A stretch of 64,000 nt of DNA. It comes from Bifidobacteriaceae bacterium. GTDB taxonomy: Bacteria > Actinomycetota > Actinomycetes > Actinomycetales > WQXJ01. Of the stretch, positions 12,437 to 64,000 are shown in pieces. A program made the translations under genes and the position numbers. The notes beneath the pieces were generated by a model that saw only the letters and a list, made by a program, of their open reading frames with translations, ran no database searches and was not told the origin of the DNA. The DNA is taken from positions 1,404 through 65,403 of the forward strand of contig JAIRXP010000033.1 of the NCBI GenBank assembly GCA_031268215.1, written 5' to 3'. How positions within the stretch are numbered: the stretch's first letter is position 1; each line of letters begins with the position of its first letter.

Positions 12437-13252
12437 GTGCGCCCTGACCCCGACCAAACCGACCAAGCCGGTCAGGCGGGCCAGTCCAGCGGCCCGGGAG
12501 CCACCGCAGCGCCTTTAGTCATCATTCCTACCTTTAATGAGCGCGAATCGCTGCCGGGGGTGCTAGAACGTCTGCGCCGGGCCGTCCCGGCCGCCCATGT
12601 CCTAGTGGTAGATGATTCCAGCCCGGACGGCACCGGCGCCTGGGCCCAAGCGGCCGCCCAGGCAGACCAGCAGATCCACGTCCTGCACCGTCCTGACAAA
12701 GAGGGACTGGGCCGCGCCTACTTGGATGGATTTAGGTGGGGACTGGAGCGGAACTTCGATCCGTTGGTGGAGATGGACGCGGACGGTTCCCACCGCCCAG
12801 AACAGTTGCCGTCATTGCTCGATGCCGTCGAAGCCGGTGCCAGCCTGGTGATCGGTTCGCGCTGGGTCCCGGGTGGCGAGATTCTCAATTGGCCCAAACG
12901 CCGTGAATGGCTATCGCGCGGCGGCAATATCTATGTCTCAGTGATGCTGGGACTCAAAATCAAAGATTCGACCGCCGGGTTCCGCGCCTATCGGGCCAGC
13001 CTCCTGCGTTCCTTGGACCTCACCAGCGTCCAAGCCCACGGCTACGGGTTCCAGGTCAACATGTCGATGGCGGCCCGCGATGCCGGCGCCCGCATCACCG
13101 AAGTCCCAATCAGTTTTCCGGAACGCCAGGCCGGCACCTCGAAGATGAATGGCTCAATTGTCCGCGAAGCCATGTGGCTGGTAACCAAATGGGGCGTGAC
13201 CCGCCGTTGGTCCGCCATCACCCACCGGCGTAAGGACGGTTCCGGAGGCTAA
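12437..13252 (+). CDS. ppm1: Polyprenol-monophosphomannose synthase (dolichol-phosphate mannosyltransferase-like GT2)
   Basis: VIIPTFNERESL, VLVVDDSSPDGT, EMDADGSH and a soluble GT2 catalytic domain typical of actinobacterial Ppm1. The exact start is uncertain (GTG at 12437). Confidence 0.7.
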   Translation: MRPDPDQTDQAGQAGQSSGPGATAAPLVIIPTFNERESLPGVLERLRRAVPAAHVLVVDDSSPDGTGAWAQAAAQADQQIHVLHRPDKEGLGRAYLDGFRWGLERNFDPLVEMDADGSHRPEQLPSLLDAVEAGASLVIGSRWVPGGEILNWPKRREWLSRGGNIYVSVMLGLKIKDSTAGFRAYRASLLRSLDLTSVQAHGYGFQVNMSMAARDAGARITEVPISFPERQAGTSKMNGSIVREAMWLVTKWGVTRRWSAITHRRKDGSGG

Positions 13253-55799: not shown

Positions 55800-56843
55800 C
55801 TAAGTGGCCAGGAGTTGGGTTAATGGCATGGAAGAATCGGCGCCAATCCCCAGGCCGGAGGGCTCCAGCCCGTGCCGAAGGGCATGGACTCCGGCAGCGG
55901 CGATCATCGCCCCATTGTCGGTACAGAACTCAACCGGCGGAATCCGCAGGTCCAGACCCGCCGCCGCGAACCGTTCCGCCGCCTTGTCTCGCAGTTGGGA
56001 ATTGGCGGAAAACCCGCCGCCAATCACCAGCGTGCCAAGCCCCTGGTCCCGCGCCGCGGTGATGGTCTTGGCCGTCAGCACATCCGCCACCGCTTCAGCG
56101 AAGCAGGCCGCGAAGTCCTCTACGGGTACGGACCGTCCCTCATCCTGGGCCGCCTCAATCCAGCGGGCGGCCGCCGTCTTCAAACCGGAAAACGAGAAAT
56201 CATAAGGATGCTTTTCCAGATCCTGGCGTCTGGTCAAAGCACGAGGGAAGACAGTCCAACCCGGGTTACCGGTCCGCGCCAGCCGGTCAATGTGTGGCCC
56301 GGCTGGGTACGGCAACCCCAGCAGCCGGCCAACCTTGTCGAAAGCCTCGCCGGCGGCATCGTCCAGAGTTTGTCCCAACTCCGTCACCACCGGGCCGTCA
56401 ATCACCAGCAACGACGAATGTCCGCCGCTCACCACCAGCGCCAGCACCGGCCCATCAAAGGCCCCGTGAACCAACTGATCCACCAACGCGTGCCCAATCA
56501 CATGGTTCACACCATAAAGCGGCTTACCCAGTGCGAAGGCGAGGGCCTTCGCTGCCGCCAGGCCAACCGCCAAGGACCCGATCAGGCCTGGCCCGGCGGT
56601 CACGGCCACCGCATCGACCTCCTCCAGGCCGACGCGACTGGTCTGGAGCGCCATCTCAATAGTTGGCATCAACGCCTCTAGGTGGGCCCGCGAAGCTACT
56701 TCCGGCACTATCCCGCCAAAGCGCGCATGCTCCTCAACTGACGACGCAACAACATCATGGAGCAGCCCAAACCCACGGGCTAACGCCACGCCAGTCTCAT
56801 CGCAGGAGGTTTCAATCCCAAGCACCAAAGGGTCGTTAGACAC
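55800..56843 (-). CDS. tsaD: tRNA N6-adenosine threonylcarbamoyltransferase
   Basis: [22 protein letters not shown] (metal-binding His pair), VSGGHS. GTG start. Confidence 0.95.
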
Positions 56844-57346: not shown

Positions 57347-57784
57347 TCAGGTCTCCAGTCGCATGATGATGGCGTCCCGCCCCGACGGTTGGTAGTAACC
57401 CTGCCTCCGACCAATCGGTTCAAAGCCCAGTGAACGGTACAGGCCAATCGCCGGTTCCGCCCCAACAGCGACCTCCAAAGTGACCCACCGCGAACCGGCC
57501 CGGCGGGATTCTGCCAGCAAGGCCTCCATCAGCCGGCGGCCTAATCCCCGGCGTTGGTAGCCGGGGTCAATCGCGACGGTCATCACTTCGGTCGAATCAA
57601 GGCCCAGGTACACGCCGCCGTAGCCCATCACTACGCCGGCCTCCTGGGACACCAAGTAACGGCGCCCGGCGCCCGCGAGTTCCTCCTCCAGCATCTCGCG
57701 GGTCCACGCCTCCGGCCCGAAACACAAGCCCTCCAGCTCCATCAGGCGGTCAATGTCCGCCGTCGTCGCCTCGCGGTGGCTCAT
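57347..57784 (-). CDS. rimI: Ribosomal-protein-alanine N-acetyltransferase (GNAT)
   Basis: GNAT motif A YQRRGLGRRLMEAL. Conserved position between tsaB and tsaD, with an ATGA-type overlap with tsaB. Confidence 0.85.
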   Translation of the reverse strand: MSHREATTADIDRLMELEGLCFGPEAWTREMLEEELAGAGRRYLVSQEAGVVMGYGGVYLGLDSTEVMTVAIDPGYQRRGLGRRLMEALLAESRRAGSRWVTLEVAVGAEPAIGLYRSLGFEPIGRRQGYYQPSGRDAIIMRLET

Positions 57785-58479
57785 GGAGTGGCCCTCTTCT
57801 GCGGCGCCGGCGGAGTTATGTCCGGCCGGCGCAAGTAGAGCGGCTGGTAGGAGACATCGCCTCCCTTGGCGGCTCGGACCGCCGCCAGCCGAGCCAGCAC
57901 AGCCGGATCAACACCAGCCGGCTCGCCAGTCAGCGGACCAAGCTGCTCAGGGTATTCCGCGGCGCCGCCGCCAACCACGATTGACGCGGGTGGTGCGACT
58001 CCCGGCCGGCTAACCGCTGGCCCCTCCAGACGGGTCAAGCCATCGATGTCCCCCGGAACATCTACCCTGTAACGGGCCCAATAGACCTCACGCCGCTTGG
58101 CGTCCAAAGCCGCCAGCATCGAAACGCCAGATTCCAGGCTGAACCGCCCGGCGGCATCGGCGGCCAAGACGTCCAGATCGCTGACCCCCCAAACCGGCTG
58201 TCCCAGTGCGAAGCCCAGAGCTTGGGCGGTCGCTAGGGCTATGCGCAGGCCGGTGTACGGCGCCGGCCCGCGCCCAACGGCAATCGCCGCCAGATCTCCA
58301 GGGGCCAGACCTGCCTCGACGAGTAACTGGGATATGAGCGGAAGCATTGACTCGACGTGGGCTCTTGGCGAGCTGTGGGCCAGCTTCCGGTCCGGCTGCC
58401 CAGGGGTAGCCAAACCCACGGCGCTGGGGCCAGCGGCACTGATACCGAGAACAGGCCCCGGCAAAATTGAATCGCTCAT
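57781..58479 (-). CDS. tsaB: tRNA threonylcarbamoyladenosine biosynthesis protein TsaB
   Basis: 232 aa: AVGRGPAPYTGLRIALATAQALGFALGQPVWGVSDL, and a C-terminal PLYLRRPD. Confidence 0.85.
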   Translation of the reverse strand: MSDSILPGPVLGISAAGPSAVGLATPGQPDRKLAHSSPRAHVESMLPLISQLLVEAGLAPGDLAAIAVGRGPAPYTGLRIALATAQALGFALGQPVWGVSDLDVLAADAAGRFSLESGVSMLAALDAKRREVYWARYRVDVPGDIDGLTRLEGPAVSRPGVAPPASIVVGGGAAEYPEQLGPLTGEPAGVDPAVLARLAAVRAAKGGDVSYQPLYLRRPDITPPAPQKRATP

Positions 58480-58633: not shown

Positions 58634-58661
58634 TTGTCTTGTGTGACAAGGTGCGTACAAT
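58634..58661 (+). promoter_or_regulatory. Candidate promoter (-35 TTGTCT, -10 TACAAT) with an embedded palindrome CTTGT-GTG-ACAAG (possible antitoxin operator)
   Basis: Hexamers and the 13-nt palindrome (58638-58650) were read directly. An AGGAGG RBS (58683-58688) and a GTG start follow. Confidence 0.4.
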
Positions 58662-58692
58662 GGGAGCACGGATCAAACGTCAGGAGGACATC

Positions 58693-59019
58693 GTGTCAGA
58701 GTCGCGGCTGAGCGTTCGCGTGGACGCCGAAGTCAAACAAGAAGCGGAGGCCGTCTTCAAGCGAGCCGGGCTCGGCCTGTCCAGTGGGATAAACGTCTAC
58801 CTCCGCCGAGTGGTCCAGGACCAGCGCATCCCGTTCGAACTCGCCGGCGCCACCGCCAAGCCCACCGCGGTCACGCGATTGGAAGACGACGCCCGCCGGG
58901 TGGTCCTCGACGCCCGCGCTGAGAACTGGGCCGCCGGGGCCCCGGTGGCGTTGTACGACACAGAACTCGACCGGCCCTACCTGCGCTATCCAGACGGGCA
59001 CACGAACTTCGACCTATGA
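58693..59019 (+). CDS. RelB/DinJ family antitoxin-like protein with a C-terminal extension
   Basis: The N-terminal ribbon-helix-helix pattern SRLSVRVDAEVKQEAEAVFKRAGLGLSSGINVYLRRVVQDQRIPFEL is typical of DinJ/RelB. GTG at 58693 lies 5 nt after AGGAGG. ATGA overlap with the downstream toxin gene. Confidence 0.6.
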   Translation: MSESRLSVRVDAEVKQEAEAVFKRAGLGLSSGINVYLRRVVQDQRIPFELAGATAKPTAVTRLEDDARRVVLDARAENWAAGAPVALYDTELDRPYLRYPDGHTNFDL

Positions 59020-59570
59020 CCGGGCCGCCCAGGTTGTTGGTCTTTGCCGGCCCGAACGGCTCCGGCAAGACGACCATCGCCCGCGCATGGGCGCCCGCGG
59101 GGATCTACATCAACGCCGATGACATAAAGCTGGCCACTGATTGCTCGGACCTGGAAGCCGCACAAACAGCCGAGCAGATCCGCAAGTCTTGTTTGGCTGG
59201 CCGGCTGGATTTCACCTTCGAGACGGTCTTGTCGACCGACCGAAACCTGCGGCTGCTACGCACCGCCCAAGACGTTGGGTACAAGATCACCGGCGTGTTC
59301 GTAATGACGGTTTCCGCGGAGCTGAATGTGGCGCGCGTCATGAGCCGGACCGCGGCAGGCGGGCACAGCGTCCCGGCGGACAAGACCAGGTCCCGCTACG
59401 CCGGTTCTTTGGCGAACCTCCCGGAGTTCGCCCGCTTGTGCGACGAGGTCTACGTCTTCGACAACACGGATCAGCCCACCGTCGTGTTCACCAAAGCAGC
59501 CGAAGACGAATCCTTCTACCCGACCGAAATGTGGCCCGCTCCAACACTGGACAGGCTGTTGGACCGCTAG
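59016..59570 (+). CDS. Zeta-toxin family P-loop kinase (COG4185-like)
   Basis: Walker A FAGPNGSGKTT, INADDI, FTFETVLS, and GGHSVPADKTRSRY, all characteristic of short zeta-toxin-like proteins. Confidence 0.65.
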   Translation: MTGPPRLLVFAGPNGSGKTTIARAWAPAGIYINADDIKLATDCSDLEAAQTAEQIRKSCLAGRLDFTFETVLSTDRNLRLLRTAQDVGYKITGVFVMTVSAELNVARVMSRTAAGGHSVPADKTRSRYAGSLANLPEFARLCDEVYVFDNTDQPTVVFTKAAEDESFYPTEMWPAPTLDRLLDR

Positions 59571-59607: not shown

Positions 59608-60087
59608 TCAGCCGTTCTTGGCCAAGTACTTGTTGTTGACCACCTTGAAGACACTCCGACCGTCAAGTTCAGGCAGGCCAACGCCCTGTTCCTCATGCCA
59701 AACAATCCCCTCCGCCAAGACCGGCACCGCCCCCTGGCGGACCTGATCAGGCCATTCACGCAACGGCACGCCCCGCCGCACGGCGCCGTCCGCCTGAACC
59801 AGGTTGGCAGCGAAGACAAACGGGCGAACGTCCGGCAAGCGCAGATGGTTGGTCTGGATCCCAGGCCCCGCAATCTCGAATTGGAGGGCCTCACCCAGCT
59901 TCAGCGATTCGAACAAATCCATGTCGCGGCTCACCGTGCTCCAGCAGGTGTTGTCGCCCTGGCCGATTTCCCAGTTGCAGCTCATGACCCGCAGTTCCCC
60001 ATCCAAGTCGCGGAGCACCGTGGCAGAAGATCCGTCCACTTTCAGGGTCGCCACCCACCGGTGTTTGAGGATCGCCGGCCGCGGAGG
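59608..60087 (-). pseudogene. 5'-truncated RNA ligase family gene (nucleotidyltransferase domain only)
   Basis: The frame reads ...AILKHRWVATLKVDGSS (motif I KxDG), FEIAGPGIQ (motif III/IIIa), AEGIVWH (motif IV), FKVVNNKYL (motif V). An in-frame stop lies 11 codons upstream of the GTG, and no N-terminal domain is present. Confidence 0.55.
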
Positions 60088-60403: not shown

Positions 60404-61342
60404 TCAGCCCGCGGCCAGCGTGCCCGGAGATTCGTCCAGAGCCGCTCCCGCCGCGGCGATGGTCACCAGAGCCATGCCAACCCCGGTCCACCAGTTCAGC
60501 GGCTGCCCAGCGATCCACCAGCCGAACAGCGCCGCCGAACCGGGAGCCAACGCCGTAGTCACACCGAAGGTGGCGGCGGACATACCGCGTAACGAAATCA
60601 TCTCCAGCCCGTACGGGATCAGGGTCCCAAGTGCGGCCACCAGCGCGCCCCAGCCAAGGACGCCGATGCCGTCCGGCCGGGCTACCAAGTCCGGCACGCC
60701 GCGCGGCAATGACGCCAGCGCCGCCACCGCCATACCAATCGCCAGGCCGTCCGCCCCGGCGAATACCCGCCCTACCAAGCGGGCGTTGACAATGTAGCCA
60801 GCCCAGGCCGTTCCAGCTACCAAGACGTAAACGGTGCCTTGAATGTTAATTCCGGCGAAGTCGAATCCTGACAGCATAAGGACTCCGCCCAGAGCCAGCA
60901 CCGCCCACATCCACGCCCGCCACCGGCGCACCAAGAGGACCGATAGCGCCAACGGGCCCAGCATTTCAATGGTCACCGCCGGGCCAACTGGCACCCGGTC
61001 TATCCCTTCGTAAAAGAAGGAATTCATGACCACCATTGAGAATCCATAAAGCGAGGCCGCACCCCAGGCCTGGGGCGTAAGCCCCCTCCACCGTGGCCGG
61101 ACCAGGGCCAGCAAAATCACCGCCGAGATCCCATTGCGGAGCAACACCATGCCCGCCGGGCCAACCAGTTCAAAGGCCTTGACGGCAAAGCCGGCACTGG
61201 CGTTGACCGATAGCTGAGCGACCACCGCCAGCGCCAAGGCCAGTCTCAGCGAGACTGGCCGGGCCGGGCCAACTGCGGGGCTTGGGCGCACGCCGCTAAG
61301 CCTATTCCGCTCCGGGGTCCGGCGCGGAGCGCCGCCGCTCAC
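60404..61342 (-). CDS. EamA/DMT superfamily transporter
   Basis: 312 aa, about 10 TM helices arranged as two EamA-like halves. GTG start 4 nt after the upstream stop. Confidence 0.8.
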   Translation of the reverse strand: MSGGAPRRTPERNRLSGVRPSPAVGPARPVSLRLALALAVVAQLSVNASAGFAVKAFELVGPAGMVLLRNGISAVILLALVRPRWRGLTPQAWGAASLYGFSMVVMNSFFYEGIDRVPVGPAVTIEMLGPLALSVLLVRRWRAWMWAVLALGGVLMLSGFDFAGINIQGTVYVLVAGTAWAGYIVNARLVGRVFAGADGLAIGMAVAALASLPRGVPDLVARPDGIGVLGWGALVAALGTLIPYGLEMISLRGMSAATFGVTTALAPGSAALFGWWIAGQPLNWWTGVGMALVTIAAAGAALDESPGTLAAG

Positions 61343-61345
61343 TAA

Positions 61346-63289
61346 CTACGGCAGAGCCACGCCCCGCCAGCGTTCACCCACGCCACGGACAGTGGCCCGG
61401 CGGACCTCCCCGCCGCCAGCCCCGCGAGCGCGGTCAAGCTGGATTTCCAAACGGTCCTGGGATAGCTGTTCCGCCATGCCCATACCCCATTCGACCACGG
61501 TGACGGCCTCCTCTAGCTCGGTATCCAGATCAAGGTCATCTAGCTGCGCCAGAGTCTCCAGCCGATAGGCGTCAACGTGCAGCAGACCGGGCCCCTGGCC
61601 TGGGAGCCTGTCAGACAACAGGCCCCCAGGCGCGCCAACAGTGTCTGCTTGCTGCGTTTCCGCTGGCGAGAGCCCTGCTCCCCCCGCGTCAACACAGGCG
61701 GAGGGTGTTGGACAACACCCTCCTGGGAGCCTGTCAGGCAACAGGCCCCCAGGCGCTCCAACAGTGTTTGTTTGCTGCGTTTCCGCTGGCGAGAGCCCTG
61801 CTCCCCCCGCGTCAACACAGGCGGAGGGTGTTGGACAACACCCTCCTAGCGAACCAAAGTTGGCCGCGTCCAGGCCAGCTCCAATCTGGCGGTCCTCCTT
61901 CAGGACCGCCAGAACAGCGTCCGGCTCACCGTCCCCACCACCAGCGCTTTCCAGACCGCATCCAGCCCTGAACGAGTTCACCACATCCACCAAGTCCTGG
62001 GTCGTGGTCGCCTCATCAGTAGATAGGTATACGGTGTCCGCGTCGTGGAGCCAAAGTTTCAGCCCCAACCCGTTGGCGGCTTCAACCACCGCCTCGGCGC
62101 GCCCAGGCACCCGCACAGCCAAGGTGTCAAACATTGGCCCCGGCCGCACCTCGACACTCGGCCCAGCCGCCGTCTTGTGGCCGATGCCGTCCAAGGCCTT
62201 TCGTAGCCCTTCCGCCGCCGCGTTTACCCCGGTCGCGATCCGCCGGAGTCCATCTGGCCCATGCCACACTCCGTACATAGCGGCCATCACCGCCAGCAGT
62301 ACTTGAGCGGTGCAAACATTCGAGGTCGCCTTGTCCCGCCTGATGTGCTGTTCACGGGTAACCAAGGCCAAGCGCAAGGCCGGATCGCCTTGGGCATCCC
62401 GGCTCAGCCCCACCAACCGGCCGGGCAATTGCCGGACCAGTTGTTGGCGCACCGCCATATAAGCGGCATGCGGGCCGCCGAATCCCATTGGCACACCGAA
62501 GCGCTGGGTTGAACCGACCGCCACATCCGCGCCCGCCGCCCCCGGCGATTGAACCAGCGCCAACATCAATGGGTCCGCACCCACCGCTAGCAGCGCCCCC
62601 GCGCCATGGGCCATCTCCGCCGCCGGGCCTAACCCGGCTAGCCGCCCGGAAGCCCCCTGGTACTGGATATACAATCCGGCCGCACCTTCCAGCGCGGAAG
62701 CGTCTGGCGCCTCCGGATCAAAGTCCACCAACTCAATCCCGAGCGGTTCGGCCCGGGTTTCCAAGACGGCCCGAACCTGCGGAAACACGTCCACGTCAAG
62801 CGCGAACCGGGACCGGCCCCCACGCGCGACCCGGTGGCACAGGAGCATCGCCTCCGCGGCCGCCGTGGCCTCATCCAGAAGTGACGCGTTCGCCACTGGC
62901 AGGCCGGTCAATTCAGAGATCATGGTCTGGAAGACGAACAGTGCCTCCAGACGGCCCTGCGAAATCTCTGGCTGATAGGGCGTATAGGCGGTGTACCAGG
63001 AGGGATTCTCCATGATTCCGCGGCGCAACACCGATGGCGTAATGGTCCGGTAATAGCCCAAGCCAATCATCGGCCGGCCAGGGGTGTTCAGCCCCGCCAG
63101 CTCCGCCAGTCGTTCAATCGCGGCAGCCTCACTGAGCGGCGGCGGCAGTTCTGGCGGGCCTGCCCTGAGCGGCGCGGGCAGCGCCTTTTCCATGATCCGC
63201 TGGCCTTCGCCGAGCCCAAGAACGCGGCGCACGTGAGCGGCGCTGTCTCCTGCCAACCCCAGGTGACGGCTGGTGAACCGCTCCCCCAC
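61346..63289 (-). CDS. Chimeric ORF: glycine dehydrogenase (GcvP) N-terminal half + two 41-aa repeats + TsaE C-terminal half (probable deletion/fusion product)
   Basis: The first ~450 aa carry GcvP N-domain motifs (ENPSWYTAYTPYQPEISQGRLEALFVFQTM, ANASLLDEATAAAEAM). aa 482-563 are the tandem repeat. aa 564-647 read LLHVDAYRL...AVTVVEWGMG..., which is the TsaE C-terminal half. The GcvP PLP-lysine half and the TsaE Walker A are both absent. Confidence 0.7.
   Translation of the reverse strand: MGERFTSRHLGLAGDSAAHVRRVLGLGEGQRIMEKALPAPLRAGPPELPPPLSEAAAIERLAELAGLNTPGRPMIGLGYYRTITPSVLRRGIMENPSWYTAYTPYQPEISQGRLEALFVFQTMISELTGLPVANASLLDEATAAAEAMLLCHRVARGGRSRFALDVDVFPQVRAVLETRAEPLGIELVDFDPEAPDASALEGAAGLYIQYQGASGRLAGLGPAAEMAHGAGALLAVGADPLMLALVQSPGAAGADVAVGSTQRFGVPMGFGGPHAAYMAVRQQLVRQLPGRLVGLSRDAQGDPALRLALVTREQHIRRDKATSNVCTAQVLLAVMAAMYGVWHGPDGLRRIATGVNAAAEGLRKALDGIGHKTAAGPSVEVRPGPMFDTLAVRVPGRAEAVVEAANGLGLKLWLHDADTVYLSTDEATTTQDLVDVVNSFRAGCGLESAGGGDGEPDAVLAVLKEDRQIGAGLDAANFGSLGGCCPTPSACVDAGGAGLSPAETQQTNTVGAPGGLLPDRLPGGCCPTPSACVDAGGAGLSPAETQQADTVGAPGGLLSDRLPGQGPGLLHVDAYRLETLAQLDDLDLDTELEEAVTVVEWGMGMAEQLSQDRLEIQLDRARGAGGGEVRRATVRGVGERWRGVALP
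61601..61846. repeat. Tandem duplication, 2 x 123 bp (4 mismatches), each unit ending in a perfect 11-bp-stem hairpin GGAGGGTGTTG-GA-CAACACCCTCC
   Basis: Units at 61601-61723 and 61724-61846 were aligned by hand. The hairpins lie at 61700-61723 and 61823-61846. Confidence 0.9.
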
Positions 63290-63675
63290 TACGCTTCGTC
63301 TTCCTTGGTCAAAGCCTCATAGGCAGCTGGGTCCAGAAGATCCCCTGGACCGGTCGGGGCAACCTCAAACAGCCAGCCGGTACCAAAGGGGTCCTCGTTG
63401 ACCAACTCGGGAGCATCAATCGCCACTTCGTTGACCGCGCTGACCTTGCCGGAGACCGGCGCGTACAGCGGCGAGACCGACTTGGTTGATTCGATTTCCC
63501 CGCATTCCTGGCCAGCCGTGACGGTATCTCCCACCACTGGCAAGCTCAAGAAGACCACGTCGCCAAGGGCGGCGGCGGCGAATTCGGTCACGCCAACGCG
63601 AGCGGTTGGTCCGGTGGCGTGGCGGACCCATTCGTGATCAGCCGTGAAGAGCAGATCGGCGGGGACAGTGGTCAT
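63289..63675 (-). CDS. gcvH: Glycine cleavage system H protein
   Basis: 128 aa: FTADHEWV, and the lipoyl-lysine motif EIESTKSVS. Confidence 0.9.
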   Translation of the reverse strand: MTTVPADLLFTADHEWVRHATGPTARVGVTEFAAAALGDVVFLSLPVVGDTVTAGQECGEIESTKSVSPLYAPVSGKVSAVNEVAIDAPELVNEDPFGTGWLFEVAPTGPGDLLDPAAYEALTKEDEA

Positions 63676-64000
63676 GATTTCTCCTTGGTATAGAAAGGCA
63701 ATTCAGTCACTTGGTACGGGGCTAGCTGGCCCCGGATGTCGATTTGGACAGGCGTCCCGCTGGCCGGAACTGGGCCCTCCACCAGGGCGAGGGCGATGGG
63801 ATGGCCCAAGGTGGGGGACAAAGCCCCGGATGTGACCTGGCCACGAACCTGACCGTTGATCAGTACCGGGTAGCCGGCCCGGGCCGCCCGCCGGCCTTCC
63901 CCCGTCAACCCGATCAGATGCTTAGTCACGGCGCGGCCAGCCAGCCCGCCCTTGCCCACATAGTCCGTTTCCTTGTTCCGTATGAAGGCTCCCTGACCGC
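63672..64000 (-). CDS. gcvT: Aminomethyltransferase (glycine cleavage T protein), C-terminal part; 5' end outside the window
   Basis: The frame is open to the window edge (...GQGAFIRNKETDYVGKGGLAGR...). It has the C-terminal GcvT barrel pattern GQVTSGALSPTLGHPIALALV and an ATGA-type overlap with gcvH. Confidence 0.85.
   Translation of the reverse strand, partial: GQGAFIRNKETDYVGKGGLAGRAVTKHLIGLTGEGRRAARAGYPVLINGQVRGQVTSGALSPTLGHPIALALVEGPVPASGTPVQIDIRGQLAPYQVTELPFYTKEKS

Follow-up and report, generated by a model that had tools for sequence, protein, structure and literature searches.

Why a single reading frame in a termite-gut Bifidobacteriaceae genome begins as GcvP and ends as TsaE is the question raised at positions 61346..63289 of the window, the 64-kb stretch of DNA analyzed here. 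At face value, the ORF suggests loss of glycine cleavage, alanine racemase, and the TsaE ATPase, and losses of that kind would distort the metabolic reconstruction of a termite-gut MAG. Judged from the sequence, the ORF most likely combines two unrelated, normally separate genes, and their junction coincides exactly with the edge of a short element. We conclude that it is probably a chimeric contig join across copies of that element in gcvP and in tsaE.

RESULTS

The ORF is an unbroken frame of 647 aa on the minus strand that runs from a GcvP N-half through two 41-aa (123-bp) tandem repeats into a TsaE C-half, an anatomy far beyond chance. Residues 8 to 440 match Pfam GDC-P (PF02347; E, 6e-142), and the gcvP half, which with its interdomain linker spans residues 1 to 480 (61850..63289, minus strand), is 75 to 77% identical to full-length, ~950-aa GcvP from Bifidobacteriaceae MAGs. 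It ends in "...NFGS," immediately ahead of the conserved start of the C-half, and "NFGSL" aligns with the "DFGGL" of relatives, in which "DRRGEFMTQ" follows. At the other end, the tsaE C-half (GPGLLHVDAYRL...VVEWG... and the stop codon; 61346..61598, minus strand) is 74% identical to residues 77 to 158 of P0121, the TsaE of a relative. Its "LLHVDAYRL...VVEWG" stretch (the HxDxYRL ... EW region) aligns with 34 TsaE proteins, and residues 568 to 620 of the ORF match positions 68 to 120 only of the 128 in the Pfam TsaE profile.

The first-pass annotation had described a GcvP N-half without its PLP-lysine half, a TsaE C-half without its Walker A and SPTF parts, and two in-frame 41-aa repeats joining them, and each element of that description held. 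By Pfam, the ORF contains neither the Walker A P-loop (GxxGxGKT) and SPTF motif of a TsaE N-domain nor PF21478 or any second aminotransferase-like half (PLP-lysine, GcvP2_C), and the repeats were recovered as a 123-bp unit in 2.0 tandem copies. Moreover, tblastn found no match to the GcvP C-half or the TsaE N-half elsewhere in the 64-kb window and no PB-like sequence (gcvPB) within it. Annotation pipelines diverge over the ORF, which is named TsaE at NCBI (MDR1441607.1, on a 68.5-kb contig) and GcvP at JGI.

That a GcvP alpha-like half and a TsaE C-terminal module form a genuine, functional fusion is scarcely credible. The unbroken reading frame is the one argument for it, but the GcvP half would act without its PLP-lysine half and the TsaE part without its P-loop, and the connecting segment has a non-coding type of composition with strong hairpins. 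Moreover, the GcvP-TsaE fusion was found on a single contig and was absent from relatives among 5.8 billion cluster representatives. The best 120 GcvP homologues were all full length or truncated by contig ends, with 70 to 79% identity for the close, single-chain enzymes of ~950 aa, and a TsaE domain was found in none of the 120 except the window's own protein. A two-subunit enzyme of GcvPA and GcvPB would also include a ~450-aa polypeptide that is equivalent to the GcvP N-half and follows gcvT-gcvH. Here, however, no gcvPB follows, the close homologues are single chains, and the break coincides with a repeat element instead of a stop/start pair.

Two further candidates at the gcvP end were rejected. 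In a MAFFT alignment, "DAANFGSL" of the ORF was placed against "DGANFNAL" of the C-half, and a C-half remnant at that point would imply an internal deletion. There was no DNA homology to that region in the relatives L001 and L002, however, a match of 5/8 residues is expected by chance in a search space of that size, and "DFGGL," the end of the linker in the closest relatives, aligns better. Partial GcvPs of ~385 to 434 aa from sibling MAGs were considered as possible marks of a repeat in the linker, but their ends were scattered and carried no repeat peptide.

What lies between the two halves is a structured DNA element with a non-coding-like codon composition rather than a protein linker, because it has an intergenic homologue, strong predicted structure, and atypical GC at the three codon positions. 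The element, 123 bp long with three hairpins, is present in two tandem copies at 61599..61849 on the minus strand (TRF and repeat search), R1 at ~61722-61849 and R2 at 61599-61721 in gene orientation. TRF reported a tandem repeat of 123 bp x 2.0 at 61599-61847 with 96 to 97% identity between the copies, which differ at 4 positions. Since 123 is 41 x 3, the array reads through in frame as 2 x 41 aa (GGCCPTPSACVDAGGAGLSPAETQQ.NTVGAPGGLL.DRLP). Its minimum free energy is -77 kcal/mol (z = -5.6), 0 matches to the hairpin core are expected in shuffles, and GC1/2/3 is 0.72/0.71/0.55, compared with about 0.70/0.50/0.75 in the host genes. In the gcvP "linker," 35 nt from the array, there is also a perfect hairpin with a 12-bp stem (TCTGGCGGTCCT-5 nt-AGGACCGCCAGA; 61885..61913), the sole perfect hairpin with a stem of at least 12 bp in the 64-kb window.

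A homologous copy of the element is intergenic in L003 (MAG JAIRYJ01, Bifidobacteriaceae), where it is 74 to 76% identical over 128 nt, has a stop in the homologous frame, and clusters with other hairpins in the intergenic region at L003 1841-2135. Three hairpins are common to the window element and the L003 copy, with 3 compensatory pairs. The ends are CCTAGG in L003 and CTAGG/CCAGG in the window and could be a short TIR or TSD; the two terminal hairpins differ in sequence, a long TIR is lacking, and no transposase was identified. Searches by sensitive blastn and nhmmer gave no further copies in the 64-kb window or in L001 to L005, a 24-nt hairpin had 0 matches in metagenome contigs, and Rfam gave E values of at least 0.2 throughout for the window array and the L003 copy, far under gathering scores. 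A 20-nt central box matched metagenome contigs 14 times, but all were chance 20-mers without the full element. In the protein collections, the sole genuine match to the repeat peptide was P0134; P0254 and P0255, both repetitive but unrelated, owe their inflated scores to multiple stretches. In sum, copies were seen in tsaE, both in P0134 and in the window; at the junction with gcvP; and at a single intergenic site in JAIRYJ01.

A partial TsaE of 122 aa, P0134 (NCBI MDR1442774.1), is encoded where another contig, 14.5 kb in length, comes to an end. Its N-half is intact, with GELGAGKT and SPTF, and the frame then runs on into "...FHPPLGGCCPTPSACVDA...", which shares 96% identity with the window repeat, until the contig stops. 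Coverage of the Pfam TsaE profile is complementary, at positions 2 to 62 in P0134 and 68 to 120 in the window ORF, and no stop interrupts the frame where tsaE-N passes into the repeat in the one or where the repeat passes into tsaE-C in the other. In relatives, the site is empty and reads "PPLG-x-GPGLL." An AF2 model of P0121 (pLDDT 87) puts it in the turn that links strands 69-72 and 80-85, such that the insertion is predicted to fall in a beta-hairpin turn with the SPTF strand on one side and the HVDAYRL strand on the other. The element is native to tsaE in this lineage, in tandem copies and in frame. The first-pass annotation treated the repeats as the joiner of the two halves and missed both this native insertion and the intergenic homologue; its suggestion to search for tsaE elsewhere was productive, as the N-half was found in the same deposit and ends in the repeat.

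P0134 is probably from the same MAG or assembly as the window, because MDR1442774.1 and MDR1441607.1 belong to the same NCBI deposit, 1167 accessions apart, and no second genome with AtpA, GcvH, RimI, or GCS2 of at least 90% identity was found in 15 billion proteins. As proof of a shared MAG, accession proximity is suggestive: the GcvPs of two different Bifidobacteriaceae in the same deposit (P0008 and P0011) are only 1291 accessions apart, and P0134 has no JGI/IMG twin, whereas the window proteins have one.

Gene order changes at the first base of the element. Upstream of the ORF, all on the minus strand, lie an intact gcvH (63289..63675; Pfam GCV_H; E, 3e-34; MDR1441608.1) and the 3' end of gcvT, which runs past the window edge (63672..64000; GCV_T_C; E, 1e-21). 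Downstream, on the same strand, lie a gene for an EamA-family transporter (60404..61342; Pfam EamA), which is the conserved neighbor downstream of tsaE in relatives, and intact tsaB (57781..58479; Pfam TsaD/Peptidase_M22 family, NCBI name TsaB), rimI (57347..57784; Pfam GNAT, NCBI name RimI), and tsaD (55800..56843; Pfam TsaD; E, 1e-87). The gcvP N-half and the tsaE C-half are likewise free of decay. The gcv side matches the operon context in L001 and L002, where the order is tyrS-gcvT-gcvH-gcvP and then 16S rRNA or a permease. The tsa side, tsaE-(EamA)-tsaB-rimI-tsaD, is ordered as in L004; in L004 and L005, the order is glmS-...-alr-tsaE-x-EamA-tsaB-rimI-tsaD (tsaE-x-EamA-tsaB in L004). Comparison with relatives had been proposed in advance as a check, and it showed that the fusion is not conserved and that the gcv and tsa loci are separate, as they are not neighbors in L001, L002, L004, or L005.

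The main rival to an assembly misjoin is real recombination in the organism, as either a deletion or an inversion. The first-pass annotation favored an event that removed the 3' half of gcvP, intervening genes such as alr, and the 5' half of tsaE; recombination between direct copies of the element, or illegitimate deletion, would leave the ORF as a chimeric pseudogene. The deposited contig shows exactly such a product, and repeat-mediated recombination would place the junction at the element edge, as seen. Moreover, no GcvP C-half that bears the repeat was found in the protein collections, and termite-associated Bifidobacteriaceae include lineages with ongoing genome erosion (PMC11707648). We nevertheless find a deletion unlikely. 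The tsaE N-half and the same repeat are present in the same deposit, probably in the same MAG, and the gcv and tsa loci are not adjacent in relatives. The event would also cost the cell alr, glmS, and the TsaE P-loop, yet tsaB, rimI, tsaD, gcvT, and gcvH are perfectly intact, and a window GC content of about 65% with an intact gene set is unlike an eroding endosymbiont.

An inversion or reciprocal recombination between inverted copies, in some or all cells, would instead yield gcvP-N::tsaE-C together with tsaE-N::gcvP-C. It accounts for both the fusion contig and the surviving tsaE-N contig that ends in the repeat, and repeats that are 97% identical over at least 123 bp are adequate RecA substrates. 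Both TsaE and GcvP would be inactivated, however, while all their partner genes are intact; the tsaE-N::gcvP-C protein is absent from protein collections; and the tsaE-N contig halts inside the repeat rather than running on into gcvP-C. We judge an inversion quite improbable.

DISCUSSION

How an assembly misjoin would generate the ORF can be proposed in a few steps. The element would have to be present in the gcvP of this organism as well, open in the same frame and at the end of the interdomain linker, a step drawn from the junction only. A short-read de Bruijn assembly would then have entered the array in tsaE by way of the copy in gcvP, which yields the order gcvP-N, repeat, tsaE-C. The true 5' half of tsaE would remain on a contig that dead-ends in the repeat, and the 3' half of gcvP on a short contig that probably went unbinned. 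Since the element would have to be free of stops in the reading frames of both host genes, a crossover inside it gives an unbroken ORF without selection. The organism would thereby retain a normal GcvP and a normal TsaE with a loop insertion of roughly 80 to 120 aa.

For the deposit series JAIRJQ-JAITXW, which includes L001 and L003, the reads were 2x150 bp and the assembler was MEGAHIT, with k as high as 119 (PMC11257099). Provided that the window MAG belongs to that series, the 246-bp array exceeds both the 150-bp reads and the largest k-mer (k of 119 or less). An exact-k-mer crossover within the window's own R1 and R2 is impossible because of their 4 differing positions, and further copies of the element, or bubble merging and pruning by MEGAHIT, would be needed.

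The pieces expected of a misjoin were recovered in part. The tsaE N-half is P0134, probably of the same MAG, while no contig or protein with the repeat followed by the GcvP C-half was found in protein collections, and no exact match to the fusion ORF, GcvH, EamA, or P0134 was found in the contig collection. The first-pass annotation had offered, as a fallback, that the missing parts are encoded elsewhere or that the contig was joined at a repeat. P0134 and synteny favor that view, and the gcvP C-half is the part for which no counterpart was found.

The locus resembles the repeat-induced chimeric contigs of short-read metagenomes in that the junction falls at a repeat that exceeds the likely read length and k-mer, gene order breaks there, the partner contig dead-ends in the repeat, and the flanking genes are intact. 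It differs in that the repeat is tiny (123 bp) and intragenic rather than an IS, an rRNA operon, or a conserved gene. It differs also in its product, as the misjoin gives a clean long ORF that passes gene callers because the repeat is in frame in its host genes.

What kind of element this is may be approached by likeness to known palindromic repeats. The Rickettsia palindromic elements (RPEs; Ogata et al. 2000; reviewed in PMC10969869) are likewise palindromic and about 100 to 150 bp long. They occur both between genes and as in-frame insertions that add a peptide to a surface loop while the host ORF stays intact, a pattern that the element here may share. The host here, however, belongs to the actinobacteria and not to the Rickettsiales, the two show no similarity in sequence, the element was seen at three loci in two genomes as opposed to dozens of RPE copies per genome, and tandem arrays of 2 to 3 units are atypical of RPEs. 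Like MITEs, REP/BIME, and ERIC sequences, the element is short, hairpin rich, and non-autonomous, has an end palindrome (CCTAGG in L003), and lies, in L003, among a group of other intergenic hairpins, and its tandem copy-number variants recall the MIRU units of mycobacteria. Unlike any of these, it matches no Rfam family, has no extra copies in 64 kb, and lacks a long TIR.

A 123-bp hairpin unit and a frame-keeping insertion in a predicted surface loop are features of RPE/MITE-like elements, and by analogy we regard the element as a putative RPE-like, in-frame palindromic insertion in an essential gene. We know of no description of an RPE-like in-frame element in Actinomycetota. That it represents a novel, RPE-like mobile element in Bifidobacteriaceae of the termite gut and that the ORF arose in vivo by recombination between two intragenic copies is, as a combined proposal, doubtful. 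If it were true, a selfish element inserting in frame into the loops of housekeeping genes such as tsaE and gcvP would be shuffling protein domains in an actinobacterium.

Ultimately, the apparent loss of glycine cleavage, alanine racemase, and the TsaE ATPase is most likely an artifact of one misjoin. The locus would then be an annotation trap, in which an in-frame intragenic repeat turns a contig misjoin into a clean long ORF. The real biology appears to be the in-frame palindromic element in tsaE, which is of modest interest: a 123-bp structured element that seems to be tolerated as a tandem in-frame insertion in the β-hairpin turn of a protein of an essential pathway.

Results

The chimeric ORF (window 61346..63289, minus strand) runs without interruption and encodes 647 amino acids, and the two halves named by the first-pass annotation were both recovered. 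By Pfam, residues 8-440 hold the whole GDC-P N-domain (E 6e-142), and residues 568-620 match TsaE over profile positions 68-120 alone (of 128). The ORF thus lacks the Walker A and SPTF parts. Profile alignment found no P-loop TsaE N-domain in it, and tblastn found neither the GcvP C-half nor the TsaE N-half across the 64-kb window. Between the two parts lie the two in-frame 41-amino-acid repeats, encoded by a 123-bp unit present in 2.0 copies at 61599-61847 that are 96-97% identical (Tandem Repeats Finder and repeat search).

The gcvP part ends at a domain boundary. GcvP homology extends to about residue 441 and is followed by a variable linker. The last residues ahead of the repeat, NFGSL, align with DFGGL, which in the nearest relatives is followed at once by DRRGEFMTQ, where conservation of the C-half begins. 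The gcvP part thus extends to the end of the interdomain linker and no further. The join falls within the CTA codon that opens the element (CTAGGAGGGTG...). We note that the "linker" contains a perfect hairpin with a 12-bp stem and a 5-nt loop (TCTGGCGGTCCT / AGGACCGCCAGA; 61885-61913), separated from the downstream repeat array by 35 nt and the sole perfect hairpin with a stem of at least 12 bp in the entire 64-kb window. Instead of being native linker, this hairpin may belong to the inserted element as an additional module. Separately, two GcvPs of related Bifidobacteriaceae MAGs (P0011, 1111 aa; P0029, 1089 aa) have several loops, the interdomain linker among them, enlarged by long, low-complexity, partly repeated Pro/Ala/Gly-rich insertions, and GcvP in this lineage therefore tolerates large in-frame insertions.

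The fusion appears only here. A protein identical to the product is known from one 68,460-bp contig only, and annotation pipelines split over its name (GcvP per JGI; TsaE per NCBI, MDR1441607.1). The pipelines also differ nearby, as the JGI calls for TsaB (57781-58479) and TsaD (55800-56843) are 44 and 63 amino acids shorter than the NCBI calls. The best 120 homologues of the ORF are GcvPs, either full-length (~950 aa) or contig-truncated, the closest being 70-79% identical and from uncultured Bifidobacteriaceae MAGs. None of the 120 has a TsaE domain, and we consider a functional GcvP-TsaE fusion highly improbable.

Gene order changes type within the ORF. The ORF is preceded on its own strand by gcvH and the end of gcvT. 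Downstream of it come an EamA transporter, a RelB/zeta-toxin pair, tsaB, rimI, tsaD, and, further on, GCS2 and a THUMP methyltransferase. In relatives, the tsa order (L004, L005) is glmS-aminotransferase-yjeF-alr-tsaE-(small ORF)-EamA-tsaB-rimI-tsaD-GCS2-THUMP, and a separate gcv locus (L001, L002) reads rho-rpmE-prfA-argH-...-tyrS-gcvT-gcvH-gcvP, followed 3' by a 16S rRNA gene in L001 and by a permease cluster in L002. The window is of the tsa type below 61598 and of the gcv type above 61850, and the synteny switch is therefore located at the element edge. In L001, from the closest relative (GCA_031281585.1), the 16S rRNA gene starts ~320 bp after gcvP and the contig ends there (12857-13246). 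Relative to L004 (tsaE-x-EamA-tsaB), the window also has ~1.9 kb extra between EamA and tsaB, with a RelB-like antitoxin (58639-59019, plus strand), a zeta-toxin/AAA_33-like kinase (59016-59570, plus strand), and a weak RNA-ligase-like fragment (59608-60054, minus strand).

The missing half of TsaE was found on another contig. A search with the ORF tail recovered P0134 (MDR1442774.1), a 122-aa "partial" TsaE (MSIELPSAQDTRDFGTRLAGLLRAGDLIILAGELGAGKTTLVQGIGQGLGVRGQVASPTFVIARFHPPLGGCCPTPSACVDAVGAGLSPAETQQTNTVGAPGGLLSDRLPGGCCPTPSACVD) on a 14,472-bp contig that stops where its contig stops. It supplies the P-loop/SPTF half (profile positions 2-62, complementary to those in the ORF) and its reading frame carries on into the same repeat (96% identity). 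TsaE relatives without the insertion read "...SPTFIIARYHPPLRHGPGLLHVDAYRL...", so the element separates PPLG from GPGLL. An AlphaFold2 model of the relative P0121 (mean pLDDT 87) puts this site in the turn that links strand 69-72 to strand 80-85, a position permissive for inserting a loop. Searched by itself, the repeat peptide had P0134 as its sole match among 5.8 billion cluster representatives and 1.84 billion 50%-identity representatives. We conclude that the repeat is native to tsaE and present there in frame.

Discussion

P0134 most likely comes from the window's MAG or at least its assembly. Window proteins are numbered MDR1441572-1441608, and P0134 lies a further 1166-1167 accessions along; in the same deposit, however, GcvPs of two different Bifidobacteriaceae are just 1291 accessions apart, which weakens the argument from distance. 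The 90%-identity clusters of GcvH, RimI, GCS2, AtpA, TsaB, and TsaD, six genes all linked on the window's contig, hold this contig's proteins only, and thus no sibling genome is visible among 15 billion proteins. The linkage of these six genes and the lack of a JGI twin for P0134 are further caveats. If P0134 shares the genome, the tsaE 5' half was not deleted but lies on a contig whose end falls inside the repeat, a pattern typical of repeats that an assembler left unresolved.

The first-pass annotation read the ORF as a loss of GcvP, Alr, and TsaE, with genes encoded elsewhere or an assembly join at a repeat as its fallback. The ORF is a correctly described sequence feature, but the loss most probably reflects an assembly artefact. 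L001 and L003 come from a MAG series for which 2x150-bp reads were assembled by MEGAHIT (k = 21...119) and the contigs binned by MetaBAT (PMC11257099), and neither read nor k-mer of that series spans the 246-bp array. We infer that the window's MAG belongs to it. Moreover, the partner genes are all intact (gcvT, gcvH, 440 aa of gcvP, 84 aa of tsaE, tsaB, rimI, and tsaD). Because of the array length, the intact partners, and, if from the same genome, the dead-ended tsaE contig, we favor a probable chimeric contig join across element copies in both genes. Here, gcvP would also carry a copy, and the misjoin would cross between the copies of gcvP and tsaE; as the element would have to be open in the reading frame of both genes, any crossover within it would stay in frame. 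A real deletion mediated by the same copies is unlikely, as alr and glmS would be gone too and the partner genes show no decay. A real inversion between the copies is about equally unlikely. For the favored join, P0134 would account for the tsaE N-half, but the repeat-peptide searches found no partner contig for the gcvP C-half, which would lie on a ~2-kb, probably unbinned contig if an rRNA operon follows gcvP as in L001.

Rather than a linker at the protein level, the repeat is an element of structured DNA. Each unit has three hairpins, namely a perfect 11+11 one (GGAGGGTGTTG-TC-CAACACCCTCC), a terminal one of 13-14 bp, and a central one, and the repeat folds as RNA at -77 kcal/mol (z = -5.6 versus shuffles). 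GC content by codon position is 0.72/0.71/0.55 versus ~0.70/0.50/0.75 in host genes, and two of three frames in gene orientation are open across the array. Among 185,579 species-representative genomes, the 24-nt hairpin had a single match, in the intergenic region that separates trxB from a large gene of the Bifidobacteriaceae MAG Gsp477_bin37 (JAIRYJ010000015.1). That copy is homologous over the whole ~128-nt unit (74-76% identity), shares the three hairpins with three compensatory pairs, and is interrupted by a stop codon in the tsaE frame. The same intergenic region (L003, 1841-2135) holds a second, degenerate copy at about 2025-2135 and two more GC-rich hairpins (1841-1867 and 1874-1897), a set that resembles a BIME-like cluster of structured repeats.

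No Rfam family matched the element, no further copies occurred in the window or five related loci, and metagenome scans returned nothing real. Its 20-nt central box (GCGTTTCCGCTGGTGAGAGC) had 14 exact metagenome matches, five of which (L007, L012, L015, L016, and L018) lie directly 3' of tRNA-Met or tRNA-Glu genes, within 1-15 nt of where the tRNA ends, and read GCTCTCACCAGCGGAAACGC on its strand. Nothing else of the element accompanies the box at those sites, where it could be a tRNA trailer or att-like motif. Closest by analogy are the Rickettsia palindromic elements, which enter genes without breaking the reading frame (PMC10969869). What remains of interest is an element like these, in frame within tsaE.
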